Below the pieces are notes generated by a model. That model saw only the letters and a list, made by a program, of their open reading frames with translations, made no database searches and had not been told where the DNA came from. A program made the translations under genes and the position numbers. From an archaeon (GTDB taxonomy: Archaea > Nanobdellota > Nanobdellia > Pacearchaeales > GW2011-AR1), in the NCBI GenBank assembly GCA_043822125.1, contig JBDRCB010000004.1:8647-72646 (forward strand): DNA of 64,000 bases, given 5' to 3'. Positions 13,887 through 44,230 of the stretch are shown in pieces (position 1 is the stretch's first letter; every line of letters begins with the position of its first letter).

Positions 13887-13915
13887 ATAAAAGAAAAAGG
13901 GTTAATAAAGTTTTT

Positions 13916-15819: not shown

Positions 15820-17070
15820 TTATTTATTTTTCTCTCCTATTAAACTTTTCTTAATTGTATAGTTAACAGGGTTCTTTACTTTTCTGCAAAGCTCGTCGGG
15901 TGTGCAGATTCCGACTCCCTGATAAAATTCTCTGCAGTTTGGAGGCATGATTGGTTTTCTTTTGTAAGCCCAGGCTAACTGAGATTGGATATATCCTTTT
16001 TTCAGAGGAGGATTGTTTTTTTCATTCCAGTCATAAATTCTTTTTTCTAATTCTTCCTTTTCCATTCCGACAGAACGGAATAAATTTATAAGAATAAAAA
16101 CAGCTCTTTTTCTTCCGTCAGAAAGTCCGTTTAAAATTCTCTGCACACAAGGAGGGAAATTTTTTTCAGAAAGATTTTCAAGCTTAATTATTTTAAAATC
16201 AAAATTTTTCTTTTCATCCTCGCTTTTGCTGTTTTCTTTGTGCCAGTCAAGAGCCTGCATTAAAAGTTCTGATGCTTCTCCTTCTTCTGCATCAGGAAGA
16301 AAATTCTTTATCTGAATCTTCATTGTGTCTGCATCTTTGATTTCAAAAGATTTTATTTCTTCTGGCTCTATAACAACACTTGCAAGAGCGGTTTTCTCGT
16401 GAAGAGAATAAGGTGTTCTGAATAAATGTCTAGGAGAAACAAGAACCAAGTCAGGCATTACTTCTTTTGGAGCTTTGAAATCTTTTATGTATTTATTCGG
16501 CTTTTCCAAATCAGAAATTCTTTCTATGAGCTCTTTTTTCGTCGCATGTATTATATACTTTGTTATTATTCTCGGCCATTCAGGAAACATATCAGAAGTT
16601 TTTATTTCATTGACAAATTTAGGAAAAGCTTTCCACGGAACAATAATATGAAACCCCTTGCTTCCTGAAAACTTCACTCCTAAATTTTTAATTCCATGAA
16701 ATTTTAAAATTCTGATTATTATTTCAGCCATGATTTTCGAATAATCAATATATTTGCTGTCAATATCTACAAGCAAATCCCATCCCTCTCTCAACTCATT
16801 TGCTTGCTGTTCTGTCATGCCTGTGATAATTTTCAGAGGTTCATTCCAGATCTCTTCTGAGCAGTGAAAAGAAGTTGCTCCACGACGAACAAGCTCAAAA
16901 ATATCATTAGGATACTGAAAAGAATCAGGGCGTTTGCCGAAACCTTCAAAATACCTCGGGCAGATTTCCCTTTTTTTGCAGAATTCAAAAATTGCTTTCT
17001 GAACATCAGGACGGGAGTAGTAGAGGTGAGTGATTTTTCTAACTCTCTGCTCTTTAAGTGATTCTGACAT
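15820..17070 (-). CDS. DNA primase, fused PriS catalytic domain and PriL C-terminal Fe-S domain
   Basis: PriS motifs LLVDIDSKY (DxD) and FSGSKGFHIIVPW. The C-terminal NFPPCVQRILNG..GRKRAVFILINLF plus PPNCREFYQGVGICTPDELC resembles the PriL Fe-S domain. Start moved to MSESLKEQ (ORF track: 17145), leaving a 106-nt divergent promoter region. Confidence 0.75.
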   Translation of the reverse strand: MSESLKEQRVRKITHLYYSRPDVQKAIFEFCKKREICPRYFEGFGKRPDSFQYPNDIFELVRRGATSFHCSEEIWNEPLKIITGMTEQQANELREGWDLLVDIDSKYIDYSKIMAEIIIRILKFHGIKNLGVKFSGSKGFHIIVPWKAFPKFVNEIKTSDMFPEWPRIITKYIIHATKKELIERISDLEKPNKYIKDFKAPKEVMPDLVLVSPRHLFRTPYSLHEKTALASVVIEPEEIKSFEIKDADTMKIQIKNFLPDAEEGEASELLMQALDWHKENSKSEDEKKNFDFKIIKLENLSEKNFPPCVQRILNGLSDGRKRAVFILINLFRSVGMEKEELEKRIYDWNEKNNPPLKKGYIQSQLAWAYKRKPIMPPNCREFYQGVGICTPDELCRKVKNPVNYTIKKSLIGEKNK

Positions 17071-17176
17071 AAACAAAGAAAATCCCAAAGATTTATATTG
17101 TTTGTTGTGAAAAATCTTATTCTTTATATTTCTTAAAAACAACAATCCTTAAAAACAGGGTATATTTTTTAGTTTA

Positions 17177-17902
17177 ATGAAGGCTAAACTTGAAAATCCT
17201 GCCTTGCTTTCAAAAGCAGTTGAATTAATTTCAGAACTTGTTACAGAAGTGAGAATAAAAGCCAATGAATTTGGAATGAGTATCACTGCAATTGACCCTG
17301 CTAATGTGGCGATGGTGAGTTTTAAAATCCCAAAGAGTATTTTTTCTCAGTTTGAGGCAGACAATGAAATTCTCGGGGTTAATCTTGACAACTTAAAAAA
17401 AATCTTAAAAAGATGCGGAATTGCGAGCAACCTAATTTTAGAAAGAGAAGAGAATATGCTGAAAATCCAGATTGAAGACAGAATAAAAAGAAATTTCACT
17501 CTTAATTTAATTGACATTGAAGGAGAGGAAAAAAATCTTCCTAATCTTGATTATTCTGCAAGAGTTGAGCTAAACTCCCTCGATATGACTGCATCTATTG
17601 AGGACTGTGCTGTTGTAGCAGACGCATGCTCATTTATAATAAAAGACGGGAAATTTATAATTGAAGCAAAAGGAATTAATTCTGCACGCTCAGAATTTTC
17701 AACAGATGAAGCAAAAATCGATGCTGAAGAGTGCAAAGCAAGATACAGTCTTGAATATCTGCAGAAATTCTCAAAAGCATCCAAACTTTCTGAAAAAACA
17801 ATTCTTCACTTTGCAAATGACCATCCTCTAAGGATAGACATCAGAACAGCGAATATGGAATTTAATTTTATTCTGGCTCCGAGAGTTGAGACTGAAGATT
17901 AA
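17177..17902 (+). CDS. pcn: DNA polymerase sliding clamp PCNA
   Basis: 241 aa. The AVELISELVTEVRIKANEFGMSITAIDPANVAMVSF start, and the length, are typical of archaeal PCNA. Confidence 0.9.
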   Translation: MKAKLENPALLSKAVELISELVTEVRIKANEFGMSITAIDPANVAMVSFKIPKSIFSQFEADNEILGVNLDNLKKILKRCGIASNLILEREENMLKIQIEDRIKRNFTLNLIDIEGEEKNLPNLDYSARVELNSLDMTASIEDCAVVADACSFIIKDGKFIIEAKGINSARSEFSTDEAKIDAEECKARYSLEYLQKFSKASKLSEKTILHFANDHPLRIDIRTANMEFNFILAPRVETED

Positions 17903-18051
17903 TACGAAGACAAAGAAAATATCAATAGCGAGTGTTGGGCTGAGTTGAGGATTGAAATTCTGCAATTTATCAAAACATTTATATAAAGCATTTTAGTAGT
18001 CTTACTAAATAAGATAAAATATACTTTATAATATAAAATAATACTTTTAAA

Positions 18052-18186
18052 ATGAAAGAGAGAATATCAGCGACAATAGACAAAGAAACACTGTCAATAA
18101 TAAAAGAACTTTTGAAAAAAGGAAAATACAGGAATAAATCACATATTATTGAAGAGGCAATAAAAATAATGAAAAAAAATGAATAA
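18052..18186 (+). CDS. ribbon-helix-helix (CopG/Arc-like) small DNA-binding protein, 44 aa
   Basis: Hand-translated: MKERISATIDKETLSIIKELLKKGKYRNKSHIIEEAIKIMKKNE. This is a beta-strand-helix-helix pattern with the RHH-typical (R/K)S.(I/V)I.EAI. It is below the 60-aa ORF-track cutoff. Its stop overlaps the next gene's ATG (18179) by 8 nt. Confidence 0.55.
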   Translation: MKERISATIDKETLSIIKELLKKGKYRNKSHIIEEAIKIMKKNE

Positions 18187-18952
18187 AAGAGGGCAGGTAA
18201 CAATTTTTATTGTAATAGGATTAATTTTAGTAGGAGCAGTGGTTTTATTTTTTGTGGTAAGAAGCGGTTTTGTTTTAAATCTGTTCAAGGAAAAAGAAAT
18301 TAATTCTGCTTCTTTTTTAGATTTGTGCATAGAGGAAAAATTAAGAGAAGGTGTCCAGATGATTTCAATGAGAGGGGGGCATATAACAAACCCTTTAAAC
18401 AGAACATTTCAGTTTATAGGAGAAAAATCCAATGACATTTCTTATTTATGCTACAATCAGAATTATTATCTTCCCTGTATAAATCAGGAGCCTATGCTGA
18501 TACAGCACCTAAAAAAAGAAATAAAAGAATACATAAATCAGGATGTTGAAGAGTGTTTTAACAAGTTGTCAGCAAGTTTAGAAAAGCAGAATTATGAAGT
18601 TGAAAAAATTTACCGCGATTTTGATGTTGAATTTGCTCCTGGAAAAATTATTCTGAATATCGACGCTGAGCTGTCTCTTAAGAAGAATGAAGAAGTGTCA
18701 ATAGAAAAAGGCTTCAAAATTATAAAACTGAGCAATTTTTATGATACGGCAGTTGTTGTTCAAGAAATTATCAGTCAGGAGGCGCAGTATTGCAATTTTG
18801 AATATACTGGTTATATGCTTCTATATCCTAAATTTAAAATAGAAAAATTCACAACAGGAGACTCAACTGAGATTTACAGAGTAGAGCATAAAAACTCAAA
18901 AGAAAAATTTCAGTTTGCAGTAAGAAGCTGTGTGATTCCTCCAGGAGTTTAA
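18179..18952 (+). CDS. class-III signal peptide (archaeal type IV pilin-like) protein, module copy 1
   Basis: N-terminus MNKRGQ|VTIFIVIGLILVGAVVLFFVV (K/R-G-Q then a hydrophobic helix). Paralog of 22930-23712. Confidence 0.6.
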   Translation: MNKRGQVTIFIVIGLILVGAVVLFFVVRSGFVLNLFKEKEINSASFLDLCIEEKLREGVQMISMRGGHITNPLNRTFQFIGEKSNDISYLCYNQNYYLPCINQEPMLIQHLKKEIKEYINQDVEECFNKLSASLEKQNYEVEKIYRDFDVEFAPGKIILNIDAELSLKKNEEVSIEKGFKIIKLSNFYDTAVVVQEIISQEAQYCNFEYTGYMLLYPKFKIEKFTTGDSTEIYRVEHKNSKEKFQFAVRSCVIPPGV

Positions 18953-21900
18953 ATGAAGAAAAATAATTTCAAAAAAATAAAACCAAGTATTTTAATCTGT
19001 GCAGTGGTTCAGATATTTTTGCTGATAAACTTAATGACAGCGCAGAATTATTTTCTGAGCAAAACTTACGACGACAAAACAGAAGCGAATAATCAAGATA
19101 TTTTTTCAAAAAAAATTTTAGGAGTTTTTTTAAAAATAATTTCAATAAAACAAATTAAAACTGTATCTGCATATTGGGTTCCAAGTGGTTTCTGCTGTCC
19201 TAAAACAGAAGATGGAGAATTATGCAGAACTCTAAAAAGCGAAGATATTAATTATGTAAACTGCTCTTATGAATTAATTCTTGGTTCATGCGAAGAAGTG
19301 TTCTGCCTCAAATGTTGTCCAAGAACAAAAAATGGGGAAATATGCAAAAACACAATTCTTCCTGAAAAAGACATGTGTGCTGAAAATATTGTTTATGGCT
19401 CATGCGAGGCTGTGAACTGCAAAATTTTAAATCAGTTTGAAGGGAACAGCGGAGAAAAAATTGAAATAGATGCTTCGTGGAACTGCTGTCTAAAAACAAA
19501 AGGAGGAGCAATATGCCAGGACTTTCTGCCGACAGATGAAGACAAATGTGAAACTTCTGTTCCAACAGAATGCAGTCAGGTTTCAGAATGCAAACTCGGA
19601 TGCTGTATTGACGACGACGAAGGTTTGTGCACACCGAGAGCACCAAAGCAAAAATGTGAGGATAATGGAGGAAAATGGGATAGTGAGGAAAACTGTGCTT
19701 TGGAAGAATGCCAAAAAGGATGCTGTGTTTTAGGAGAGCAGGCTTCATTTGTCACAGAAAAAAGATGCGAGGTTTTATCCTTAATCTTCAGCACTGAAAA
19801 AGATTTTAGAAAAGGGGAATCAGAATTTTCATGTCTATTGCTAGCGAAGAGCCAAGCAAAAGGAGCATGTGTTTATGATGAAGGTATCTGCAAAAGTTTA
19901 ACAGAAGAATCCTGCTTAGGAACAGGCGGAAGATTCTACAAAAATTATTTGTGTTCTCATCCTGATTTAAACACAATATGCGAAAGGCAAAGTGAAGTAA
20001 AATGTGATGATTCAGAGAACAATTTCGAAATATACTGGTTTGACAACTGTGGAAACAAGGAAAATATTTATTCTTCTGACAAGGAAAAATCATGGAATAA
20101 TGGAATGATTCTAAAAAAAGAAGACAGCTGTAATCCTGATTTGTCAAATATTGGTTCTAAAACATGCGGGAACTGCAATTATTATCTTGGAAGCAAATGC
20201 GTGCAATCAGATGAAGAAAATGGAAAAAAAGTTGAAGATGGAAATTACATCTGCAAAAACCTCAACTGCATAGATGACGACGGAAAAGAATGGAAAAACG
20301 GAGAAAGCTGGTGCGAATATGATTCTTATATTGGAGATGGAAAGGACACTGTTGGAAGCAGGCACTGGATTAAAACCTGCACAGAAGGAGAGATAATCAC
20401 AAGAGGCTGTGCTGATTACAGAGGAGAAATCTGCGTTCAGTCAAAAATGGAAGAAAGTGAAAAAGAATTTTCAGTAGCATCCTGCGTTATGAATGAAGCT
20501 ACAAAATGTCTTGAATACAACACAAGAAGCAACATGGCTGAACTCTGCAATGAAAATCCATACTGCATGATAAAAAATATTGCTATAAGCAAGTATTTTA
20601 AATTTGACATCTGCGTCGGAGAATATCCAAAAGGATTTGATTTAAGAGATTCAGGACAAGAACAATTATGCGGTCTTGCAACTCAAACCTGCACTGTTTA
20701 TTATCAGAAAAACTGGAAAGGTGGTTGGGACTGCATTGCTAACTGCGAATGCAAAACAGAAGCATTTGTTCAACAGATGAATGACTTCTGCATTTCCCTC
20801 GGAGATTGCGGAAGCTATATTAATTATATAGGAGAGGGGACAAGCAGTTCAAAATTAAATGGAGCAGATGTGCCGTGGAGCCAATATAAAGAATTTGCAA
20901 ATCCAGTTGAAGGAAAATATGCTGTTCCACGAAATATAAGTGAATCCTCTTATGCTCTTGTTGGAGCAGGAGAACCATATGTTCCTGAAGAAGGAAGTGA
21001 AATTGAAAAAACAATTGAACTCCTCGGACAAATTTCAGGTGCTTCAGGACTTTTAATTCAAGGTGCTGGGTATTTTTTTCCTGAGTTAATTAAAACTGCA
21101 GCAGTAGAAGCAGGTAATTCTGCGTCCCTAGCAACCGCAACCACCCTCGGAGCAATAGGCAGTGCAGCAGTAGGAGCAGGAATTGGAATGTTTGCTGCGA
21201 AATATTTAGGAGAATTATTTGGTGTGAAAGGCGACGGGCTTGCAGTAATGACTTTTGCAGGGGGTGTTTCTGGTGCTGCTGCAGGATATATGATTGCAAC
21301 ACAGGCAACAACAGTCGGATGGGTTTTTTTCTGGGGAGGCATTGCTTTGATGCTTTATATTATTATAATTGGGTGGGGTGAGACAAAAGAAGAAAAAATT
21401 GAATTCAAGTGTATGATGTGGGAAGCTCCATTAGGAGGAAGTGACTGCAAAAAGTGCAATGAGAATTCTGAAAAACCGTGCACAAAATACAGGTGCGAAA
21501 GTTTAGGGCAGGCATGCAAAATTTTAAATGAAGAGGTTGTTGAGAATCCTGTATGCGAAAACATTCCTTATGAAACAAATCCACCTGTGATAACTCCTGG
21601 AGAAAACATAACAGAAGAATATAAATTTCAGAATGAAGAAAACAAAAGAGTTGAGATAAGAAAAGAAGATGGTAGCTGTATTCAGGAATTTACTCCTATT
21701 TTATTTGAACTTGAAACAGATGAATATGCGCAGTGCAAATTCAGTTTTGAAAAAAAGAGTGATTATGAAAACATGGGTGATAATTATCCTATTGAGCAGA
21801 ATTTATTTACATTAAAGCATAATTTTGGATTTTTTATGCCTAGTCTGGAAAGCCTGGAAGTTTATGATGTTGAGGGAGATTTAATAGAAATGTTTGGAAA

Positions 21901-22900
21901 AACAGACATGTATATCAAGTGCCAGGATTCATGGGGCAATAAAAATTTAGAAGAGTATATTGTTAATTTCTGCATTCACTCAGGACCTGATGTCACTCCT
22001 GTTAATCATATTTATACTACTGCAAATCCTTCAGATAATATTTTCCTTAGATACGGAACTAATGAAACCCCAATGACTTTGTGGGTAAATGAACCAGCAG
22101 AATGCAAATATGATTCATCTCCTAATAAAGAATATAATAAAATGCTTTATTCTATGGATTGTAGAACAGGGTTAAATCAGAGCCAGACAAATGGATGGCC
22201 GTGCTACACCACACTCACAAATTTAAAAGCAGGTGAAAATAAATTTTACTTTAAGTGCAAAGACCAGCCGTGGAAAAGTCCTGAAGAGCAGAATCTGAGG
22301 AATATTAATTCGCAGGATTATGAATATACAATTAACATCCCTGAAAAAATATTAAAAATAAATTCAATTTTCCCTGAGGGAGAAATTGAAAAAGGATTTG
22401 AACCTGTTCCAATAAATCTTGAAGTAAAAACTTCAGAAGGTTCTGAAAACGGAAAATCAAAATGCTATTACAGCTTTGCGGGATACGGAAATATTTATGA
22501 ATTTTTTGAAACAAGAAGCAATATACATCTGCAGAATTTTAATCTAATGAGGGGAAGCTACAAGATATATGTAAAATGCACAGATGATGCAGGGGATTCT
22601 GCTACAGGGGAGACGAGTTTTAAAATAAAAATTGACAAGTCGCCTCCGAATGTTGTGAATGTTTATTATGAAAACAATAAATTAAAACTAAAAACTGACG
22701 AAGACGCTGAATGTTATTATGATTTCAACACATGCAATTACAATCCTGCAAATGCAAATAGAATGACAACCGCCTTTTCAATAACCCACAGTGCAGAGTG
22801 GATTCCAGGAAAAGTGTATTATATTAAATGTTTTGATGTGTGGGGGAATGGAGGAAGCGGATGTAGTATTGAAGTTGCTGCGAGCTCAATAACAAAATAA
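18953..22900 (+). CDS. 1315-aa cysteine-rich multi-domain membrane/surface protein, unknown family
   Basis: Signal anchor; tandem CC-containing Cys modules; central Gly/Ala-rich hydrophobic block (GAIGSAAVGAGIGMFAA...VGWVFFWGGIALMLYIIIIGWG); then four repeats of a ~110-aa domain. Starts 1 nt after the upstream stop. Confidence 0.7.
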   Translation: MKKNNFKKIKPSILICAVVQIFLLINLMTAQNYFLSKTYDDKTEANNQDIFSKKILGVFLKIISIKQIKTVSAYWVPSGFCCPKTEDGELCRTLKSEDINYVNCSYELILGSCEEVFCLKCCPRTKNGEICKNTILPEKDMCAENIVYGSCEAVNCKILNQFEGNSGEKIEIDASWNCCLKTKGGAICQDFLPTDEDKCETSVPTECSQVSECKLGCCIDDDEGLCTPRAPKQKCEDNGGKWDSEENCALEECQKGCCVLGEQASFVTEKRCEVLSLIFSTEKDFRKGESEFSCLLLAKSQAKGACVYDEGICKSLTEESCLGTGGRFYKNYLCSHPDLNTICERQSEVKCDDSENNFEIYWFDNCGNKENIYSSDKEKSWNNGMILKKEDSCNPDLSNIGSKTCGNCNYYLGSKCVQSDEENGKKVEDGNYICKNLNCIDDDGKEWKNGESWCEYDSYIGDGKDTVGSRHWIKTCTEGEIITRGCADYRGEICVQSKMEESEKEFSVASCVMNEATKCLEYNTRSNMAELCNENPYCMIKNIAISKYFKFDICVGEYPKGFDLRDSGQEQLCGLATQTCTVYYQKNWKGGWDCIANCECKTEAFVQQMNDFCISLGDCGSYINYIGEGTSSSKLNGADVPWSQYKEFANPVEGKYAVPRNISESSYALVGAGEPYVPEEGSEIEKTIELLGQISGASGLLIQGAGYFFPELIKTAAVEAGNSASLATATTLGAIGSAAVGAGIGMFAAKYLGELFGVKGDGLAVMTFAGGVSGAAAGYMIATQATTVGWVFFWGGIALMLYIIIIGWGETKEEKIEFKCMMWEAPLGGSDCKKCNENSEKPCTKYRCESLGQACKILNEEVVENPVCENIPYETNPPVITPGENITEEYKFQNEENKRVEIRKEDGSCIQEFTPILFELETDEYAQCKFSFEKKSDYENMGDNYPIEQNLFTLKHNFGFFMPSLESLEVYDVEGDLIEMFGKTDMYIKCQDSWGNKNLEEYIVNFCIHSGPDVTPVNHIYTTANPSDNIFLRYGTNETPMTLWVNEPAECKYDSSPNKEYNKMLYSMDCRTGLNQSQTNGWPCYTTLTNLKAGENKFYFKCKDQPWKSPEEQNLRNINSQDYEYTINIPEKILKINSIFPEGEIEKGFEPVPINLEVKTSEGSENGKSKCYYSFAGYGNIYEFFETRSNIHLQNFNLMRGSYKIYVKCTDDAGDSATGETSFKIKIDKSPPNVVNVYYENNKLKLKTDEDAECYYDFNTCNYNPANANRMTTAFSITHSAEWIPGKVYYIKCFDVWGNGGSGCSIEVAASSITK

Positions 22901-22929
22901 TTTATAAATTAAAAAAACATAAAAGAAAT

Positions 22930-23712
22930 ATGAAAAAGGGTGAAAATAAGAAAGCACAGGTTACTATTTTTATAATCGTCGCTGTGATTGCAGTTTCATT
23001 GGGAATTTTAGTTTATATGTATTACCCGCAGATAAAAGCGACTTTTGGTTTTGAGGAGAAAAATCCTTCGGCATTTATTCAGGATTGCCTTGAAAGAGAA
23101 ATAAAAACAACTACTGAAAAATTATCTCTGCAGGGGGGGAGCATAAATCCAGAGCATTATTTCTTATATGGAGGAGAGAAAATAAAATATCTATGCTATT
23201 CTGAAAGCTACTACGCAAGATGTGTTGTGCAGGAACCTATGCTGATACAGAGTTTTGAATCTGAAATTAAAAATGAAATTGAAGATGAAGTAGAAAAATG
23301 CTTTGACTCTATGGAGGAAAATTACGAAAAAAGAGGATATGGTGTGGATTTGAAAAGAGGAGATTTTTATGTTGAACTTCTTCCGAAAAAGATCAGTGTA
23401 ACTTTCAACAGCACAATTGTTCTTTCAAAAGACAGCTCTGAAAAATACGACTCATTTAAAATAATTTTGAACAATAATCTTTATGAATTGCTGTCTATTG
23501 CGAATAATATTTTAGAATGGGAGGCACGGTACGGAGAAGCTGAAACAACTGTTTATATGGATTATTACAGCAATTTAAAAGTTGAAAAGAAAAAGCAGTC
23601 AGACGGGACAACGATTTATATTTTAACAGACAGCAACACAAAAGACAAGTTTCAGTTTGCGTCGAGAAGTATTGCATGGGCGCCGGGCTACGGCACAGGA
23701 GGAGTTTACTGA
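22930..23712 (+). CDS. class-III signal peptide (pilin-like) protein, module copy 2
   Basis: NKKAQ|VTIFIIVAVIAVSLGILVYMY. Shares YLCY..YY..C..QEPMLIQ, E.CF and K.KFQFA.RS with 18179-18952. Confidence 0.6.
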   Translation: MKKGENKKAQVTIFIIVAVIAVSLGILVYMYYPQIKATFGFEEKNPSAFIQDCLEREIKTTTEKLSLQGGSINPEHYFLYGGEKIKYLCYSESYYARCVVQEPMLIQSFESEIKNEIEDEVEKCFDSMEENYEKRGYGVDLKRGDFYVELLPKKISVTFNSTIVLSKDSSEKYDSFKIILNNNLYELLSIANNILEWEARYGEAETTVYMDYYSNLKVEKKKQSDGTTIYILTDSNTKDKFQFASRSIAWAPGYGTGGVY

Positions 23713-25232
23713 TGAAAAAAATATTTTTATTAACTGCATTAATACTATTATTAGCAGTGCCTGTTTTTGTTTCAGGAGAAGTTTCTTATTGTTGTGAAAA
23801 AACAACCAGCGGAGACTGGTGTTTGAATGCCCCTCTTGAAAAATGCGACGATAACTTCAGAAAAATTCCTGCTTCGTGCGAGGCAACTTCTTACTGCAGA
23901 TTAGGATGCTGTTACAACAGCAGAGAAGGAACCTGTATGCCGAACACACCTCAAAAAACCTGCGAAGACAAAGGAGGTGTATGGGATGGAAATGCTGAAT
24001 GCGACATTCCTCAGTGCAGTCTCGGGTGCTGTTTAATAGGAGACCAAACATCATTTGTAACACAAGTGAGATGTAAAAGATTATCTTCACTATACGGACT
24101 TGAAACAAATTTCAGAACAGACATTACAAGTGAAGTAATGTGCATCTTGAGTGCAGTGTCTGATGTCAAAGGAGCATGTGTATATGAAAAAGAATTTGAA
24201 AAAACCTGCGAGTTTATAACAAAAAAAGACTGCCTTGAAAAAATAGATGAAGAACTGGGTGCAGAATTTCACGAGGGATATTTATGCTCTGCTGAATCAC
24301 TTGGAACAAACTGTGGAGCGAGCAAAAAAACAACCTGCGTCGAGGGGAAAGATGAAGTTTATTTTGTTGACACCTGCGGAAATTTAGCAAATATTTATGA
24401 TGCCTCAAAAATAAACAGTGCAGAATACTGGACAAAAGTTTATATAAAATCAGACAGCTGTGGTTCTGGTTCGTCAAATGCAAATTCTGCAACATGCGGA
24501 AACTGCGATTATTATCTTGGAAGCACATGCAAAGAATATAAAAGAGGAACAGACAGAGCACCGAATTATGGGGATAATATATGCAGGGATTTGGGCTGTG
24601 AATACAAGGGAGTGAGGTATGAGCACGGAGAAACATGGTGTGCAGGAGGAGAGCACGGGAATGAAGGTGTAAGTGTGATTATTTCTGAAAGCGAAGAAGT
24701 ACCTGATGCGAAAACAGAAAATCTCCCTGGTAGCAGATATTTTAGAATGATTTGCTACAACAATGAAATAAGTGTCGAGCCATGTGCTGATTTCAGACAG
24801 GAAGTTTGCATTGAATCAGAAGTGAATGGATTTTCAACTGCTGCGTGCAGAGTAAATATGTGGCAGGACTGCTCTACTCAAACAACAGAATCTGACTGCG
24901 GAAACACAGATAGAAGAGATTGTATGTGGAAGCCAGTTGAAATAGGAGGGGTTGTTATGAATCTTTCTTGTTTTCCAAAATATTCTCCTGGATTTAATTT
25001 CTGGGAAGCTGGAGGAGATGCTGAATCAACATGCTCGCAGTCAAACAGCATTTGTGTTGTTAAATATGAAAAACAAAAAGGAATTTTTGGAGTTGGAGAG
25101 GGGAATTGGAATTGCATTGAAAATTGCCATTGTTTAGGAGAAGGCTTCAAAGATTCAATGAATAATGTATGCACAGCACTTGGCGATTGCGGAGTAAAAG
25201 TAAATTATATTGGAGTTGAAGGTTACAAATGA
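23712..25232 (+). CDS. 506-aa Cys-rich secreted protein, paralog of the N-terminal half of 18953-22900
   Basis: Signal peptide MKKIFLLTALILLLAVPVFVSG. The start is taken at the ATG overlapping the upstream TGA (TGATG); the ORF track gives 23676. Collinear similarity to the 1315-aa protein from CRLGCC... to GDCG..NYIG. Confidence 0.7.
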   Translation: MKKIFLLTALILLLAVPVFVSGEVSYCCEKTTSGDWCLNAPLEKCDDNFRKIPASCEATSYCRLGCCYNSREGTCMPNTPQKTCEDKGGVWDGNAECDIPQCSLGCCLIGDQTSFVTQVRCKRLSSLYGLETNFRTDITSEVMCILSAVSDVKGACVYEKEFEKTCEFITKKDCLEKIDEELGAEFHEGYLCSAESLGTNCGASKKTTCVEGKDEVYFVDTCGNLANIYDASKINSAEYWTKVYIKSDSCGSGSSNANSATCGNCDYYLGSTCKEYKRGTDRAPNYGDNICRDLGCEYKGVRYEHGETWCAGGEHGNEGVSVIISESEEVPDAKTENLPGSRYFRMICYNNEISVEPCADFRQEVCIESEVNGFSTAACRVNMWQDCSTQTTESDCGNTDRRDCMWKPVEIGGVVMNLSCFPKYSPGFNFWEAGGDAESTCSQSNSICVVKYEKQKGIFGVGEGNWNCIENCHCLGEGFKDSMNNVCTALGDCGVKVNYIGVEGYK

Positions 25233-25594
25233 TAAAAGCAGATTTTGAAGAATGGATTAAATTCGCAGAGGAAGATTTAGAAACTGCAAGTTATAATATC
25301 AATGGCGGGAAAACTGGCGCTGGACTTTTTTTCCTGCAACAGTGTGCTGAAAAATCACTGAAAGCAGTTTATATGAAAAGATTTGAAAATATGTTCAGGA
25401 CACATGACTTGGTTCTTCTTGCAAAAAAGTTGAATGTTCCTAATGCAATTATGAAATACTGCAAAGAGCTGAATCCTGCTTATCTTTATACAAGATATCC
25501 TGATGTTCCAGAGGTGAAAAATCTCAATGAGATGGGGAAAAACCTGCATTTTTATGCTAAAGAAATTTTAAAATGGGCAAAGAAGAATACATAA
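25229..25594 (+). CDS. HEPN domain protein (toxin-like partner of adjacent nucleotidyltransferase)
   Basis: 121 aa. AEKSLKAVYMKRFENMFRTHDLVLLAKKL matches the classical HEPN (PF05168-type) helix pattern. ATGA overlap with the upstream stop. Confidence 0.75.
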   Translation: MIKADFEEWIKFAEEDLETASYNINGGKTGAGLFFLQQCAEKSLKAVYMKRFENMFRTHDLVLLAKKLNVPNAIMKYCKELNPAYLYTRYPDVPEVKNLNEMGKNLHFYAKEILKWAKKNT

Positions 25595-25890
25595 GGATAT
25601 TGAAAAAATTCAAGGAGAAATTAAAAGGAAAAATAAAAGTGGAAAAAATGATTTTGTTTGGTAGCAGGGCTGTTGGAGATAATAGAAAAGACAGCGACAT
25701 AGATTTGCTAATAGTTTCTTCTTCATTCAATGGAAAAAACTTTTTTGACAGAGTAAAAAAAATGTATAATTACTGGGATTTGGATTATGCAGTTGATTTT
25801 CTGTGCTATACTCCTGAAGAATTTGAAAAACTCAGCAAAAAAATCAGCATTGTTACAGAGGCACTGAAAACAGGAGTTGAGATAAAATGA
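25573..25890 (+). CDS. minimal nucleotidyltransferase (MNT)
   Basis: LFGSRAVGDNRKDSDIDLLIV is the GSxxxGxxxxxSDxDLLV Pol-beta-type NTase motif. Confidence 0.8.
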   Translation: MGKEEYIRILKKFKEKLKGKIKVEKMILFGSRAVGDNRKDSDIDLLIVSSSFNGKNFFDRVKKMYNYWDLDYAVDFLCYTPEEFEKLSKKISIVTEALKTGVEIK

Positions 25891-26171
25891 GAAAAGAGGA
25901 AATAATTCAAAAAATTGAAAGAGCAAAGGAGAAAATAAAAAGTAGTGGTGCAAAGAAGATTGGTGTTTTTGGCTCTGCAATTAAAGGGGGAAAAAATCCA
26001 AAAGATATTGACATACTTGTTGAGTTTGACGAAGTAAGTTTTGACAAGTATATAGATTTATTATTATTTTTAGAGAAATTGCTTAAGAAAAAAGTAGATT
26101 TAGTGATTGAATCTAATTTGCGTCCTGAACTAAATTATGTAAAAAAAGAGGCAAAATATGTCAAACTATAA
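25887..26171 (+). CDS. minimal nucleotidyltransferase (MntA-like antitoxin)
   Basis: GVFGSAIKGGKNPKDIDILVEF NTase motif. 4-nt overlap with the upstream gene. Confidence 0.8.
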   Translation: MRKEEIIQKIERAKEKIKSSGAKKIGVFGSAIKGGKNPKDIDILVEFDEVSFDKYIDLLLFLEKLLKKKVDLVIESNLRPELNYVKKEAKYVKL

Positions 26172-26490
26172 TTTGTATATTAATTTAATTTTAGAAACAA
26201 TTGAAAAAATAGAAAAATCTTGCAAAGAAAAAAAACAAATTATCAACAATATAAATTTGCAGGATGCAACTTTAATGAGGCTCCAGATTATTGGAGAAAA
26301 CATAAAGAAAATTCCTTTAGAATTAAAAAGAAAAAATAAAGAGTTTAAATGGAAAAAATTTGGGAGATTAAGGAATTTAATAAGTCACAGATATGAAACA
26401 ATAAATTATGAACTTATCTGGAGTTTTATAAAAACTAATTTGCCTGAATTAAAAAAAGAAATATTAAGATTAAAAAATGAAATTAAATAA
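26158..26490 (+). CDS. HEPN/DUF86 (HepT-like toxin)
   Basis: RLRNLISHRYE contains the Rx4-6H HEPN RNase motif as found in DUF86. Overlaps both neighbours. Confidence 0.8.
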   Translation: MSNYNLYINLILETIEKIEKSCKEKKQIINNINLQDATLMRLQIIGENIKKIPLELKRKNKEFKWKKFGRLRNLISHRYETINYELIWSFIKTNLPELKKEILRLKNEIK

Positions 26491-28735
26491 TCGCGGAAAA
26501 CTTGCAGTTATGCAGATTGGAGTTTTATTAATTGGAATTATCGCAACGACATGGATGATTGGTGGAGTTAGTGGAAATCAACTTAGTTATCCTTTACCAG
26601 CAAAACCTGCAAGTGGAGGTGGGATAACAATAGATAGAACAAAAATGTTGAATGCACTTAATGTAGAAGAAAAACCAACAGAATATGGGAACTATAATAT
26701 ATTAAATAAATTACAGACATTAGATAGCAAAGAGGATATTATTGGAGTTTGGAGAAAAAGTGATGGAACTTTTCAATTAATACAAACAACAAACCCTGAG
26801 AGTATTTATACCTCAAAGGTTAATTATCTCCCTGTCGACAAATCAGTAATAGAAAAAATGGGTTTATTCAAGGGCTCGTCTAAATTATCAGAACTTCTTG
26901 GATTATCTAAAGGAACTTATTGGGATGCAATTGCTACTGGTCTTCAATGGGGCGGGATAGCATATGCTGTGGCAAAATTCGGAGGAGAAATGCTCGGACT
27001 TGATAAAAAACAAGCTGATGCTCTTGCTACTGCGTCGTTCTGGGGGCTTTCAACAGGCATGGGACTCAATACTTTACTTAAAGAAGGAGGGGCTGGACAT
27101 AAGTGGTTTATGGGTATGACTAAAGGAAAAGTAGATTGGCTTACTCCAGGAAGAGTAAGTGCCATTGCAGGTGTTGCGATTGGGCTTTATCTTTTTATGA
27201 AAAACAACAAAGAAGAAAAAGCTGAAACAGTTAGTTACACTTGTGTGCCTTGGGATGCTCCTTCAGGAGGAAATGATTGTGAGAAATGCAATTCTCAGGA
27301 ATTGCCCTGCAGTGAATATCAGTGCAGAAGTTTGGGGCAGTCATGTCAGTTGATAAATTCAGAAGACCCTGTTGAAGCAAGATGTGTTTGGGTAAATCGT
27401 CATGATGTAAATCCTCCGATAATACAGCCGTGGGAAGATGCACTTACAAAAGAACACATATACACTCCGAATACAGCAGTTTCCCCACCAGATAGAGGAG
27501 TAAAAATAGAATTTACACAATCTTCTGACAAATGTGTAAAAACATTCACACCATTATCATTTGGAATAACAACAGACGAGCCGTCGAGGTGCAAAATTGA
27601 TTATGAAAGAAAAAGTAAATTAGAAGAAATGCAGTTTTATTTTGGAGACAGCTCTACATTCAAATATGAACATATACAAATACTGAATCTTCCAGGTCCA
27701 AGTGCTGAATCAAATGAATCTGTAATAATTCCAAGTGGAGGGGATTTTGATTTGTATGTTAAATGCACAGATGCTAATGGAAATGAAAACACAGCTGATT
27801 TTGTGTTTAGTTTCTGCGTCGACGAGGGACCTGACACAACACCGCCGTTGATAGTTTCAACGAGTTTAATGAATAATATGCCAATAGCATATAACCAGAC
27901 TTCTGTGGATATTTCTGTTTATGTGAATGAACCAGCAGAATGCAAATGGAGTCACAAAGACCAGTCCTACGACAGCATGGAGCAGGAGATGAAATGCTCG
28001 ACGAGGGTTTTAGAAATGAATGCACAGATGCTATATGAATGCAAGACAACACTGACAGGATTAAAAAGCAGATTTGAAAATAAATTTTATTTTAAGTGCA
28101 AAGATAATCCAGGAAAGCAGGATGCAGACAGAAATGCAAATACAGAATCCTATGATTTCACAATAATCGGAACACAGCCGTTGGTAATTGATTCTGTAAA
28201 TCCAGACGGAGATAAAATAAAAGATTCAACAGACAGTGTAAAAGTTCTTTTTGAAGCAAAAACTTCAGCAGGATACAGTGAAGGGAAAGCATATTGCTAT
28301 TTCAGTAAAACAGACAAAGACAGTGACTATGTTTTATTTGACAAAACAAATTCTCATCAGCATGAGCAGGAATTATGGTTTTTGAGTGGAAGCTACACTT
28401 ATTATCTTAAATGTGTTGATCTAGGAGGAAATTCTGATAAGAGAATAATAAATTTCGAGGTAGAGACAGATTCAAGTCCGCCAATTGTTGTGAGAATCTA
28501 TAAAGAAGACAGTTACTTAAAAATTCAGACAAATGAAAAAGCAGAATGCGTCTATGACACTCAAGGATGCAGTTACTTATTTGACGACGGAATCAGCATG
28601 ACAACAACAGAAGAAACTCTGCACTACACTAACTGGAATCCAGGAATTAATTATTACATAAAATGCAGAGACGAATACAGCAACCAACCTTCTCCAGATG
28701 AGTGCAATATTGTTGTAAAACCACTTGAGATTTAA
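26477..28735 (+). CDS. 752-aa membrane/surface protein, paralog of the C-terminal half of 18953-22900
   Basis: Own hydrophobic N-terminus (NRGKLAVMQIGVLLIGIIATTWMIGG) and Gly-rich TM block. YTCVPWDAPSGGNDCEKCN...YQCRSLGQSCQLIN aligns to FKCMMWEAPLGGSDCKKCN...YRCESLGQACKILN. The same four-fold repeat domain follows. Confidence 0.7.
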   Translation: MKLNNRGKLAVMQIGVLLIGIIATTWMIGGVSGNQLSYPLPAKPASGGGITIDRTKMLNALNVEEKPTEYGNYNILNKLQTLDSKEDIIGVWRKSDGTFQLIQTTNPESIYTSKVNYLPVDKSVIEKMGLFKGSSKLSELLGLSKGTYWDAIATGLQWGGIAYAVAKFGGEMLGLDKKQADALATASFWGLSTGMGLNTLLKEGGAGHKWFMGMTKGKVDWLTPGRVSAIAGVAIGLYLFMKNNKEEKAETVSYTCVPWDAPSGGNDCEKCNSQELPCSEYQCRSLGQSCQLINSEDPVEARCVWVNRHDVNPPIIQPWEDALTKEHIYTPNTAVSPPDRGVKIEFTQSSDKCVKTFTPLSFGITTDEPSRCKIDYERKSKLEEMQFYFGDSSTFKYEHIQILNLPGPSAESNESVIIPSGGDFDLYVKCTDANGNENTADFVFSFCVDEGPDTTPPLIVSTSLMNNMPIAYNQTSVDISVYVNEPAECKWSHKDQSYDSMEQEMKCSTRVLEMNAQMLYECKTTLTGLKSRFENKFYFKCKDNPGKQDADRNANTESYDFTIIGTQPLVIDSVNPDGDKIKDSTDSVKVLFEAKTSAGYSEGKAYCYFSKTDKDSDYVLFDKTNSHQHEQELWFLSGSYTYYLKCVDLGGNSDKRIINFEVETDSSPPIVVRIYKEDSYLKIQTNEKAECVYDTQGCSYLFDDGISMTTTEETLHYTNWNPGINYYIKCRDEYSNQPSPDECNIVVKPLEI

Positions 28736-28770
28736 TAAAACTTTATAAGTAAATAATTCTTGATTTTAGA

Positions 28771-29265
28771 ATGAAAAGAGGGCAGATGCAATTGTCTTTT
28801 GGAATGATTTTTTCAATAATCCTTATAGTAATTTTTATTTCTGTTGCTTTTTATGCTATTTTAAAATTTCTTGATGTGCAAAATTCAATGAAAGTTGGAA
28901 AATTCCTAAATGATTTTCAGACAGATGTTGACAGGATGTGGAAGGGCTCGCACGGCTCGCAGGAAGTTGAATATTATCTGCCGTCGAAGATAGAATATGT
29001 CTGCTTTATTGATTATTCTTTGCAATCGAAGGGGAGCAGGGCAGATATTTACAATAAAATGAAGCAGGTTTATTATGAACATGAAAATATTTTCTTTTAT
29101 CCTCTTGGTTCTGCAGAAGGGATGGATGCGAGTGAGATAGAGCATATAAATCTTGAAAAAATCACAGAAAGCGAAAATCCTTACTGCGTTCAAAATGTCG
29201 ACGGGAAAATAAAATTTACCCTAAAGAAAAATTACGACGAGGCGACAGTTGATGTTACAAGATGA
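28771..29265 (+). CDS. class-III signal peptide (pilin-like) protein
   Basis: MKRGQ|MQLSFGMIFSIILIVIFISVAFYAI. Confidence 0.55.
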   Translation: MKRGQMQLSFGMIFSIILIVIFISVAFYAILKFLDVQNSMKVGKFLNDFQTDVDRMWKGSHGSQEVEYYLPSKIEYVCFIDYSLQSKGSRADIYNKMKQVYYEHENIFFYPLGSAEGMDASEIEHINLEKITESENPYCVQNVDGKIKFTLKKNYDEATVDVTR

Positions 29266-30182
29266 GAAAAAAAGGTTTTATTCAGATTCCATTTGGATGG
29301 CTTTTTGCAATTCTCGTCGGAGCAGTTATTCTTTTTATTGCAGTTTATGGAATCACAAAATTAATCAGCACAGAGGAAGAAACTCAGGCACTGAAAACAG
29401 GAATTGAAATCGGAATATTACTAAACCCTCTTGAAACAAGTTTTCAGACAGCGCAGTCTTTGTCAGTCACGATTCCAGCTGAAACAAGAATTTACAGTGG
29501 GTGTAGTGTTGAAAATATTTTTGGAAGACAGTTGATTCAAATCTCGCAGAGGAGTTTGGGAAAATGGACTAAAAAATCAGAATCAGTTGGTTTTTCAAAT
29601 AAATATATTTTCTCAGAGAGCCCTGCTGAGGGGAAAAAATTTCACTTATTTTCAAAACCATTTGAATTTCCATTTAAAGTCGCGGATTTAATTTACTTAA
29701 CATCATCTTCGGAAAAATACTGCTTCAAAAATGCCCCTGAAGATATAAAAGATGAAATCTCAAGATTAAGCCAGGAAAATTTTATGGTTGAAAACTGCCA
29801 AGGAGAGCAGGTGAATATTTGTTTTGAAGATGGTGCAAACTGCGATGTGAATGTAAAAAGAAATTTAGGTTATCTGGAAAAAGGTGGGGAAAGAATGTAT
29901 TTTGAAGTAGATGCTTTAATGTATGCGGGGATTTTTTCACCAAAAGAAATTTACGAATGCCAGTTAAAAAGGCTTATGCAGAGAACAGAACAGCTTGCTG
30001 TGATTTACGACGAGAAAGCGAGTTTTATCCTGCAGACAGCAGAGTGCGAGTCAAATCTTAATTTAGAAGACTTAATTTCTTCTGCAAGGAATTTTAAAGA
30101 TTCCACTGATATTAGTTCAGTAAAAATAATTGCTGATGAAATTCAGAAGAAAAACGACTTGGCGGGGTGCAAATTATGGTAA
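29262..30182 (+). CDS. pilin-like protein with N-terminal hydrophobic helix
   Basis: MRKKG|FIQIPFGWLFAILVGAVILFIAVYGI. 4-nt overlap with the upstream gene. Confidence 0.5.
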   Translation: MRKKGFIQIPFGWLFAILVGAVILFIAVYGITKLISTEEETQALKTGIEIGILLNPLETSFQTAQSLSVTIPAETRIYSGCSVENIFGRQLIQISQRSLGKWTKKSESVGFSNKYIFSESPAEGKKFHLFSKPFEFPFKVADLIYLTSSSEKYCFKNAPEDIKDEISRLSQENFMVENCQGEQVNICFEDGANCDVNVKRNLGYLEKGGERMYFEVDALMYAGIFSPKEIYECQLKRLMQRTEQLAVIYDEKASFILQTAECESNLNLEDLISSARNFKDSTDISSVKIIADEIQKKNDLAGCKLW

Positions 30183-30682
30183 AAGGGCAGTTAAAAATAC
30201 AGCAGATGGCTTTTATGCTCATGGCAATAACTTTATTTTTCGTGCTAGCAGGAATGTTTGTGATGGTTTTTAAATTTTCAGGGTTAAAAGAAGCAGCGAC
30301 GGCACTTGAAGAAAAAAATGCAATTTTAACAATAACAAAACTCGCGAACTCTGCTGAATTCTCATGTGAAGAAGCATTTGACACAAGAAAAACAAACTGC
30401 GTTGATTTTGATAAGGTGATGATTTTGAAAAAAAACATAGACAAATATGAAGATTTTTGGGGGGTAAAAAATATAGAGATAAAAAAAATTTACCCATCTG
30501 GAGAAAGATTATGCACTTCCAGTAATTATCCAGACTGTGAAATTGTTAAACTGCATGACAGCGAAAGCACAGGATTTACAGCCACCAGCTTTGTTTCATT
30601 GTGCAGAAAAACAGCGTCGGAAGGCGGGGCTCAAAATAAATGCGAACTAGCAAAATTAATTGTAAGTTATGAAACAAGATGA
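30167..30682 (+). CDS. pilin-like protein
   Basis: MVKGQ|LKIQQMAFMLMAITLFFVLAGMFVMVF. Overlaps the upstream gene by 16 nt. Confidence 0.5.
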   Translation: MQIMVKGQLKIQQMAFMLMAITLFFVLAGMFVMVFKFSGLKEAATALEEKNAILTITKLANSAEFSCEEAFDTRKTNCVDFDKVMILKKNIDKYEDFWGVKNIEIKKIYPSGERLCTSSNYPDCEIVKLHDSESTGFTATSFVSLCRKTASEGGAQNKCELAKLIVSYETR

Positions 30683-31161
30683 TAAATAGAAATTTAAAGA
30701 AGGCTCAGGAGGAAATTATAGGATTTGTTTTGATAATTATACTTGTGTCAGTGATTCTTCTTATTTTTCTTTTGTTCTCTCTGAAAACCTCGCAGAAAGA
30801 GCCGGTTGAGAGCTATGAAGTTGAGAATTTTTTACAGGCAATGCTACAATACACAACTGAATGTGAAAGTTATACTGGGTTTTTCTCAGTTCAAAATCTT
30901 ATTGTCAAGTGTTATGAAGATTATATCTGCCTGAATGGAAAAAATGCATGTGATGCTTTGGAGACAACTTTAAGTGAAATGATAGAAGAAAGCTGGAAAG
31001 TAGGGGAAGACAGAACTGCAAAAGGATATATGATGAATATAACTGCTGAAAATAAACAGATAATTTCTCTGAAAAATGGGAATGTAACTGGAAATTCTCG
31101 GGGGGCTGTACAGTTTTTAGGTGCGAGGAGTGCAGAAGTTTATTTTGTTGTTTACTCTTAA
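30679..31161 (+). CDS. pilin-like protein
   Basis: NLKKAQ|EEIIGFVLIIILVSVILLIFLLF. 4-nt overlap with the upstream gene. Confidence 0.5.
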   Translation: MINRNLKKAQEEIIGFVLIIILVSVILLIFLLFSLKTSQKEPVESYEVENFLQAMLQYTTECESYTGFFSVQNLIVKCYEDYICLNGKNACDALETTLSEMIEESWKVGEDRTAKGYMMNITAENKQIISLKNGNVTGNSRGAVQFLGARSAEVYFVVYS

Positions 31162-31511
31162 ATTTTAAGATGAATTGTTATTGAATCCACAACAATCTCT
31201 GGCTTGTGTCTTGTTCTGTTATTTACTTTTTCCTCCACCAGTTCAATAAATCCAAATCTCTGCAGAAGTTTTATGTCATCGTTTACAGATTTAAATCCGC
31301 GGTTCAGTTTTCTGGCAAGTTCATAAATTGAACCAGGCTTCTGATTTTTAATCACATCCAATATTCTTGCTTTCTCGTTGCTCAAAAGCTGTCTTAAAGA
31401 AAGTATTCCTGAAAAATCATAATCTTTTTTTGAACTCCCTGATTTTTTAAAAACATGAAAAGTCCCTTTGGATTCTTTAATAGTAATTTCTCTTATTTTT
31501 GTTTTTGGCAT
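31158..31511 (-). CDS. winged-helix DNA-binding protein (HVO_A0114-like)
   Basis: LSNEKARILDVIKNQKPGSIYELARKLNRGFKSVNDDIKLLQRFGFIELVEE is a wHTH. It is convergent with the operon's last gene and overlaps it by 4 nt. Confidence 0.55.
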   Translation of the reverse strand: MPKTKIREITIKESKGTFHVFKKSGSSKKDYDFSGILSLRQLLSNEKARILDVIKNQKPGSIYELARKLNRGFKSVNDDIKLLQRFGFIELVEEKVNNRTRHKPEIVVDSITIHLKI

Positions 31512-44227: not shown

Positions 44228-44230
44228 AAT

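Follow-up and report, generated by a model that had tools for sequence, protein, structure and literature searches.

A conserved cell-envelope operon of DPANN archaea encoding prepilin-like and giant cysteine-rich proteins

Here we describe a gene cluster at positions 18052–31161 of a 64,000-nucleotide (nt) stretch of archaeal DNA (contig JBDRCB010000004.1 of assembly GCA_043822125.1; the whole stretch is referred to below as the window), an interval that is filled by 14 open reading frames (ORFs), all on the plus strand. The interval holds a chromosomal cell-envelope operon that is conserved in DPANN archaea. Its core set consists of a gene for an RHH protein followed by A1–B1, A2–B2N–B2C and C1–C4 (RHH and nine core proteins, ten conserved genes), with four further genes inserted in the window between B2N and B2C. 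We place the core products outside the cytoplasm because B1, B2N and B2C carry Sec-type signals, every component has invariant cysteines and the domains present include immunoglobulin (Ig)-like domains of surface type.

Organization of the operon

The RHH gene overlaps A1 by 8 nt, A1 abuts B1 and a 29-nt gap separates B1 from A2. The A2/B2N junction is a 1-nt overlap if the ATG at 23712 is taken as the start of B2N; B2N overlaps the first inserted gene by 4 nt, and the overlaps that follow, through the insert to B2C, measure 22, 4, 14 and 14 nt. Between B2C and C1 lies a gap of 35 nt, after which C1/C2, C2/C3 and C3/C4 overlap by 4, 16 and 4 nt. These ORF coordinates agree with an original prediction, made from the sequence alone, of 14 same-strand genes with junctions that overlap or span at most 35 nt. 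The G+C content and skew of the cluster are like those of its flanks.

The first gene (18052–18186) encodes a 44-residue, DNA-binding RHH protein of the CopG type (Pfam RHH_1, E = 7.8e-6), as originally predicted. An orthologue stands immediately 5′ of A1 in about 20 relatives, with identities of 53–78%, and the protein is probably the regulator of the operon. The prediction had further divided the cluster into two diverged copies of a module, each with a small protein of about 258 residues and a large one of about 1300. The first copy stands as proposed, with A1 (257 residues) and B1 (1315 residues). The second does not: its supposed single large gene is really two, of about 506 and 752 residues (B2N and B2C), with toxin–antitoxin (TA) cassettes inside.

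No Pfam or NCBIfam family reaches threshold for any of the nine core proteins (window proteins were scanned at E ≤ 1), and comparison of their sequences and profiles with PDB sequences gives no match, in keeping with the earlier view that the large proteins and those of about 258 residues lie outside named families. A search of the available literature returned no description of this gene cluster. The sequence of B1 is identical to GenBank entry ABH804_00400, from the metagenome-assembled genome (MAG) of an uncultivated archaeon; exact-sequence look-ups with B1 and with the S-layer protein of the window returned no record.

Conservation across genomes

Scanning a single genome for each GTDB species yielded 288 stretches encoding a relative of B1, from which 79 distinct loci were kept and compared with the window by tblastn of all window proteins. 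Among the loci long enough to judge, the order primase (minus strand), PCNA, RHH (where present), A1, B1, A2, B2N, B2C, C1, C2, C3, C4, helix–turn–helix (HTH) regulator (minus strand) and S-layer gene recurs in about two dozen species-level MAGs, with orthologue identities of only 30–60% across the syntenic loci. Gene calls uphold the full order in L002 and L004 and the upstream part of it in L084–L086. Conservation of gene order had been proposed as a check on the original prediction; the order is strongly kept, and loss of synteny was not seen. The carrier MAGs bear the names Pacearchaeota, Woesearchaeota or Nanoarchaeota, which identifies the organism as a DPANN archaeon, in line with the original prediction.

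Of the 79 distinct loci, more than 60 have the A–B core. An A gene always immediately precedes a B gene, save for an extra B1-type gene in L086 that lacks an A gene of its own; extra B1-like copies, mostly with their own A gene upstream, occur in L017, L020, L028, L038 and L067. A second, more divergent clade (L044, L048, L052, L060, L074 and L075) has A1–B1–A2–B2N–B2C without primase or PCNA upstream, and an RHH match upstream in L074 and L075 alone. Judged by synteny, the A–B pair is the core of the cluster, to which C1–C4 are joined in a single large clade.

The A proteins

A1 (18179–18952; 257 residues) opens with MNKRG/QVTIF, in which the slash divides positions −1 and +1 of the motif considered below. 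A2 (22930–23712; 260 residues) begins with NKKA/QVTIF after a leader and aligns to A1 with 39% identity (E = 7e-53), which makes the two paralogues; A2 orthologues are present in nearly all related loci. The A family, clustered at 50%, has 5282 representatives under a cutoff of E ≤ 1e-3, and a cutoff of E ≤ 1e-30 leaves 519; the members listed are nearly all of about 255 residues. Identity to the A protein of the window is 49–61%, and the corresponding range for B is 40–53%.

The AlphaFold2 model of A1, calculated from a 51-sequence alignment, is confident (mean predicted local distance difference test (pLDDT) score of 88.5) and places a membrane helix at residues 4–28, a disordered stretch at 32–39 and an alpha/beta globular domain at 43–257. 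The last of these is a predicted disulfide-bonded ectodomain; C50, C91, C100 and C126 are invariant in the family. A structure prediction followed by Foldseek had been suggested originally as a check of the fold: the A1 model has no neighbour in the PDB (best E = 0.011, TM-scores mostly below 0.3), and likewise none in BFVD.

The C terminus of the A proteins, FAVR[GS]C[VI]IPPG (18926–18949 in A1), is nearly invariant (C251, I253, P255 and G256), which suggests a docking or sorting motif.

The B proteins

B1 (18953–22900) has 1315 residues, of which 79 (6.0%) are cysteines, and comprises a Sec-type signal, a Cys-rich ectodomain, a Gly/Ala-rich block, a Cys knot and Ig-like domains. Residues 116–1315 were modelled with a mean pLDDT of 79.6 on an alignment of 61 sequences. 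The N-domain (residues 176–660; 19478–20932) is a beta-rich, disulfide-rich ectodomain modelled mostly at a pLDDT of 75–95, and most of its roughly 45 cysteines are invariant in the family. The Gly/Ala/Ser/Thr-rich block that follows (residues 683–806; 20999–21370) is predicted, from the model and from hydropathy, to form four helices (683–708, 731–755, 760–783 and 787–806), the first of them included in a low-confidence stretch of the model (663–732). Across 61 homologues, the block measures 110–150 residues and is almost charge-free, with fewer than about 1.2 lysines or arginines per segment. The remainder of the protein (residues 810–1315; 21380–22897), as invariant columns and Foldseek matches indicate, consists of an invariant Cys knot after the block (C..PW.AP.GG..C.KCN...PC..YRC.SLGQ.C) and tandem Ig-like beta-sandwiches that bear a repeated ‘ECKY ... 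KC.D..GN’ motif.

Near the N terminus of B1 (residues 80–190; window 18953–19530), where the model is of low confidence, are three tandem modules of the form CC-x-[KR]-T-x-x-G-x-[IL]-C, at residues 81, 121 and 178. One copy of the module is found in B2N; most homologues span about 86% of B1 and lack its N-terminal 170 or so residues.

B2N and B2C together correspond to a second B protein. B2N (23712–25232, in an ORF that opens at 23676; about 506 residues) has a Sec signal peptide and a Cys-rich ectodomain with 45 cysteines, and it aligns to residues 178–627 of B1 (35% identity, E = 2e-81), which identifies it as the N-terminal half of a B protein. B2C (26477–28735; 752 residues) aligns to residues 676–1313 (34% identity, E = 9e-99) and is the C-terminal half, made up of a Sec-type signal or anchor, a spacer of about 110 residues, a Gly-rich helical block, the Cys knot and Ig-like domains. 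The N termini of B2C orthologues finish in VSG or VSA, not in the [KR]G/Q of the A and C proteins.

At least 390 homologues of B1 were found, nearly all of them unnamed or ‘hypothetical’. The same holds for the large A and C3 families, in which most members are nameless in every source, the named ones are nearly all ‘hypothetical protein’ and, as among the B1 homologues, none carries a Pfam domain. One NCBI record, for the B homologue P0048, carries the name ‘GRP family sugar transporter’, to which NCBIfam gives no match and which looks spurious. In Pfam, Big_13 and Y_Y_Y match B1 only below threshold. The top 50 PDB matches of the B1 model in Foldseek are all generic beta-sandwich proteins, mostly with tandem Ig or fibronectin type III domains (E = 3e-12 to 3e-8); they include PTP-delta, contactin, titin and the GhpA grappling hook, at query TM-scores of at most 0.15, and in this whole-protein search they masked whatever signal the N-domain might give. 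Built from 42 members, a profile of the B2N-type N-domain found nothing among PDB sequences or in Pfam, and Pfam scans of individual members gave scattered chance matches. Likeness to a fusogen (HAP2/fusexin) or a pore-former surfaced neither in the Ig-dominated whole-protein fold search with B1 nor in the N-domain profile searches. None of the B proteins has an S-layer match in Pfam, and B2C shows no similarity to the adjacent S-layer protein (E = 1.3).

Because B1, B2N and B2C have Sec-type N termini, Cys-rich domains and Ig domains of surface type, we infer that both large domains of a B protein are extracellular and that the block between them crosses the membrane an even number of times (four). 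N-glycosylation sequons show no enrichment and are if anything depleted, and they are uninformative on topology.

C1–C4 and the prepilin-like N termini

The four genes at the 3′ end of the operon encode small Cys-containing proteins. C1 (28771–29265; 164 residues) starts MKRG/QMQLSFGMIFS, a motif kept in 25 orthologues, and conserves C78 and C139. C2 (29262–30182; 306 residues) starts MRKKG/FIQIPFGWLFA, has eight conserved cysteines and no match among PDB sequences. C3 (30167–30682; 171 residues) carries VKG/QLKIQQMAFML after its leader; its orthologues have Q at +1 and K at +3 without exception (21/21 each), and the few that are named among 1877 homologue clusters (90% identity) are called ‘hypothetical protein’. 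C4 (30679–31161; 160 residues) carries KKA/QEEIIGF and four invariant cysteines, with Q at +1 in 19/20 orthologues and E at +3 in 20/20.

Together with A1 and A2, these proteins all fit the class III signal pattern—a basic leader, K or R at −2, G, A or S at −1 and some 20 hydrophobic residues—so that the pilin-like N termini originally predicted for six proteins are recovered, and with them conservation of the motif in orthologues. The +1 residue is Q in five of the six window proteins and F in C2. In each family, the motif is kept in 20–70 orthologues; conservation begins at −3 or −2, and the leader upstream of it varies among orthologues from 2 to about 40 residues (leader conservation 0.26–0.35 in C2–C4, and 0.75 in C1, the leader of which is two residues long). 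Within C1–C4, no region is conserved better than positions −2 to +25 (0.68–0.74 versus 0.45–0.54 elsewhere); taken singly, the helix scores 0.68 against 0.45 for the rest of the protein in C1, 0.71 against 0.54 in C2, 0.74 against 0.54 in C3 and 0.68 against 0.47 in C4. The A, C1, C2, C3 and C4 families have only this N-terminal segment in common (hhalign probabilities below 50%), and a scan of all ORFs in the window found the [KR]-[G/A]-Q N terminus nearly confined to this operon.

In type IV pilin families the N-terminal helix is the best-conserved part, whereas a plain signal anchor is expected to keep hydrophobicity alone. We call the N termini prepilin-like because five otherwise unrelated families share the motif and helix, the leader is variable and the helix is the best-conserved region of C1–C4. 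Profiles of the five families found nothing significant among PDB sequences, the best match being that of C1 to the N-terminal helix of PilE1 (E = 0.14), and Pfam scans of 66 individual A and C proteins gave scattered chance matches only.

Toxin–antitoxin genes at the B2N/B2C junction

The four genes at 25229–26490, which do not figure in the original prediction, are by their domains two HEPN/MNT TA pairs, MNT denoting minimal nucleotidyltransferase. The first pair comprises a HEPN-domain protein (25229–25594; Pfam HEPN, E = 9.6e-22) and an MNT (25573–25890; NTP_transf_2, E = 5.8e-14), and the second an MNT (25887–26171; NTP_transf_2, E = 9.5e-9) and a HepT-like HEPN ribonuclease (26158–26490; HepT-like, E = 2.4e-19). 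That the insertion split an intact gene is ruled out by the relatives that lack it: in L002 and L004, B2N (about 525 residues) and B2C (712–766 residues) are already separate, overlapping genes, and L058 alone has a fused B2 form, of 1366 residues. The division into two genes is thus ancestral, and the cassettes were inserted cleanly at a gene boundary. On this comparison the TA pairs are a local insertion, putative passengers outside the apparatus.

HEPN/MNT genes lie inside the operon in 12 of 81 related loci, always on the operon strand; the relatives with internal genes of this kind are L005, L007, L014, L016, L018, L027, L028, L035, L036, L056, L067, L077 and L086. Twenty-five matches fall inside, at the A2/B2N (14), B2N/B2C (nine) and B2C/C1 (two) boundaries, and seven outside (binomial P = 0.012). 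The TA gene boundaries of the window and of L086 overlap, as if the genes were co-translated. HEPN/MNT genes of DPANN archaea have been noted in a ‘housekeeping context’ (Makarova 2019).

The B2N/B2C junction is a hot spot of insertion for other genes as well. L001 has six reverse-strand genes there (17496–22328; dCMP deaminase, NUDIX, glycosyltransferase 2, radical SAM and two unknowns), and L085 has six small genes (16109–18690).

Genomic surroundings

The flanks consist of housekeeping genes, with a fused primase and PCNA upstream and, at a greater distance, genes for FtsZ, ribosomal proteins and an aminoacyl-tRNA synthetase. Downstream, a convergent gene (31158–31511, minus strand) encodes a winged-helix regulator of the HVO_A0114 family (Pfam HVO_A0114, E = 5.5e-16), which keeps its position between C4 and the S-layer gene in relatives. 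The next gene (31850–34240, plus strand) encodes an S-layer-like protein of 796 residues (S_layer_C, E = 1.1e-9), a neighbour also present in L002 (S_layer_C, weak) and, by tblastn, in other relatives.

Several other genes in the window are worth recording. The primase (15820–17145, minus strand; 441 residues) joins small- and large-subunit domains in a PriS–PriL fusion, and its tblastn match is split in two in many relatives, which suggests an insertion. After it, on the same strand (12666–15757), come two conserved genes without a family (406 and 613 residues), the position of which is kept in L002, L004 and L084–L086. About 6 kb upstream of the operon, a 181-residue protein (11651–12196, plus strand) has a ComEA-like, DNA-binding helix–hairpin–helix domain (HHH_3, E = 1e-17). 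A 540-residue CARDB-domain protein (36857–38479, minus strand; E = 5e-5), probably a surface protein, lies near the S-layer gene. Next to ftsZ (42353–45046, minus strand), a fusion of a CHASE2 sensor with an adenylate/guanylate cyclase (624 residues) and a FecR-domain protein (271 residues) form a cyclic-nucleotide signalling pair that is unexpected in a reduced genome.

Relation to known systems

Among known loci, those for archaeal type IV filament pilins and adhesins come nearest. In two surveys (Makarova, Koonin & Albers 2016, PMC4858521; a 2026 census, bioRxiv 10.64898/2026.04.22.720090), such loci are described as encoding together several small proteins with a basic leader, [KR]-[G/A] and a hydrophobic helix, as keeping pilins apart from the genes for the ATPase and TadC, and as being associated with large adhesins and with proteins that are S-layer-like or have Ig domains, all features in which the present cluster is alike. 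The former reports that archaeal pilin sets are often distant from the ATPase/TadC genes and lie beside S-layer-like Ig-domain proteins, and that the cognate pilins of nanoarchaeal ATPases have not been identified (PMC4858521). The present cluster differs from those loci in that no curated pilin model matches, the fold of A1 is not that of a pilin and the window holds no ATPase, platform protein or peptidase. For the giant, Cys-rich, polytopic B partners, the available portions of the same two sources offer no counterpart.

By analogy, the cluster also resembles the tips of bacterial type IVa pili and type II secretion systems (FimU–PilVWX or GspHIJK with PilY1), in that a fixed series of four minor-pilin-sized genes, with C2 (306 residues) as the large one, stands next to genes for very large, non-pilin surface proteins. 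Myxococcus PilY1 clusters likewise contain paralogous modules, again as an analogy only. Unlike those tip complexes, the present components give no evidence of homology by sequence or fold, the B proteins are embedded in the membrane without a vWA or beta-propeller domain, and the organism is an archaeon. The original prediction had noted an echo of type IV pilus tip complexes but judged the components unrelated; Pfam finds no PilY1/PilC beta-propeller or vWA domain in B1, B2N or B2C, and none is among the fold matches of B1.

Two other archaeal comparisons bear on the cluster. The ‘enigmatic’ cls.004306/NEQ255 is a DPANN-restricted secreted family near Ig-domain and S-layer-like genes (2019, PMC6393860); it is a single family, unlike the ten-gene cluster here, and the A family, large and uniform as it is, or one of the C families may overlap it. 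A putative secretion system marked by arCOG01314 likewise combines membrane or secreted Ig-domain proteins (two to four transmembrane helices) with S-layer-like proteins (Makarova, Galperin & Koonin 2015, PMC5898192), but the window encodes none of its signature components, which are a DUF4350 protein, an AAA+ ATPase of the MoxR type and a vWA protein.

Discussion

We propose, tentatively and with a probability of roughly 45%, that the cluster specifies a type-IV-filament-related, disulfide-stabilised surface complex, the machinery for which is encoded elsewhere. All components would be exported, and the six [KR]-[G/A/S]/Q proteins would be cleaved by a class III (prepilin-type) signal peptidase from another part of the genome. 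Their conserved N-terminal helices could then pack into a short, heteromeric, pilus-like stem or tip, in the manner of minor-pilin complexes. Such a stem would be coupled to the membrane-embedded B proteins, the Ig-like stalks and Cys-rich heads of which would reach to or through the S-layer, and the product would be a disulfide-stabilised complex on the cell surface that serves adhesion or contact. A role in host attachment is plausible from the lifestyle of these archaea and fits a contact machine as well as a filament; the fixed position beside the S-layer gene suits a general envelope role equally well.

A number of results weigh against a filament-related complex. The curated pilin and class III models (Pfam Class_IIIsignal PF04021 and Pilin_N PF07790, and the NCBIfam archaeal pilin N-terminal models) match none of the 66 A and C members at E ≤ 10, although these models are short and weak matches may be lost to the HMMER filters. 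As modelled, A1 looks unlike a canonical pilin: a 25-residue helix is followed by a disordered linker that parts it from the globular domain, where a pilin would have a long, continuous N-terminal helix packed on a beta-sheet or sandwich, and no pilin appears among its Foldseek matches. Conservation in the A family is higher in the ectodomain (0.70) than in the helix (0.62). Neither an assembly ATPase nor a platform protein nor a prepilin peptidase is encoded among the window ORFs of at least 180 residues, as the original prediction had observed, or, in six relatives, in the 10 kb on either side of the cluster. Finally, at the second-clade loci examined, the C1–C4–HTH–S-layer genes are not found downstream, so that the A–B core can stand with no pilin set beside it.

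Several of these points speak for an S-layer-associated scaffold or biogenesis complex of the envelope, unconnected with type IV filament machinery, in which the [KR]-G-Q segments would be uncleaved anchors that tether six ectodomain proteins to the membrane, and the B proteins polytopic anchors whose Ig stalks cross the pseudo-periplasm and hold or organise the S-layer lattice. We regard this as possible, if on balance unlikely. The site beside the S-layer and HTH genes, amid housekeeping genes, is fixed in every full-length relative and makes the cluster look core, not accessory; filament assembly genes were not found nearby; and A1, modelled as a tethered globular protein and matched by no curated pilin model, would suit such a complex. 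For other DPANN archaea, a role in anchoring the S-layer has been proposed for membrane proteins with Ig domains (bioRxiv 10.1101/2023.10.27.564410). Plain anchors, however, would not be expected to show residue-specific conservation of the helix and an invariant +1 Q over five unrelated families, B2C bears no similarity to the S-layer protein, and the second clade retains the A–B core where, at the loci examined, the primase and PCNA genes upstream and the C1–C4, HTH and S-layer genes downstream are missing.

An apparatus of contact, pore formation or fusion in an episymbiont, with the Gly/Ala block acting as a glycine-zipper channel or in the manner of a fusion peptide, a Cys-rich head that recognises the host and a pilin-like stem, seems to us improbable. 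Such an apparatus would account for a block of about 110–150 almost uncharged residues, rich in small-xxx-small motifs, between two apparently extracellular domains; the two paralogous modules, the extra copies and the lower conservation of B than of A would fit surface recognition; and DPANN archaea are thought to need contact structures, the genes for which are not known. Yet the top 50 fold matches of B1 are all to generic beta-sandwiches, the profile searches are empty, an ordinary four-helix membrane anchor is a simpler reading of the block and no host is known for these lineages. We give similarly little weight to a previously unrecognised organelle with a six-subunit stem and two giant B proteins, in which the block would form a channel in, or insert into, the membrane of a partner.

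That the genes form no functional unit, being a chance run of secreted-protein genes or a mobile or viral island, is scarcely credible, even though TA cassettes and other small genes insert within the cluster: order and content are kept at the same site between PCNA and the S-layer gene in genomes with orthologues of only 30–60% identity, and synteny and a composition like that of the flanks led us to reject an island. No integrase or capsid gene was found.

In groundwater, lakes and sediments, archaea labelled Pacearchaeota and Woesearchaeota rank with the most abundant that are still uncultivated. The operon offers a lineage-wide target for studying how their cells are built and make contact with others, with ten conserved genes at a fixed site beside the S-layer gene, core products that are extracytoplasmic and outside the family databases, and in A a component with a confident predicted fold that lacks a structural neighbour. 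Should the organelle with a membrane-inserting or channel-forming block prove real, these episymbionts would have in it their long-sought machinery of contact or bridging, made from folds without known relatives. If the N termini of the filament-related complex that we favour are class III signals, the cluster would provide the pilin set that has been ‘missing’ from these archaea and, in the B proteins, a new kind of partner protein for type IV filament biology; if they are not, the cluster would be a new envelope complex.

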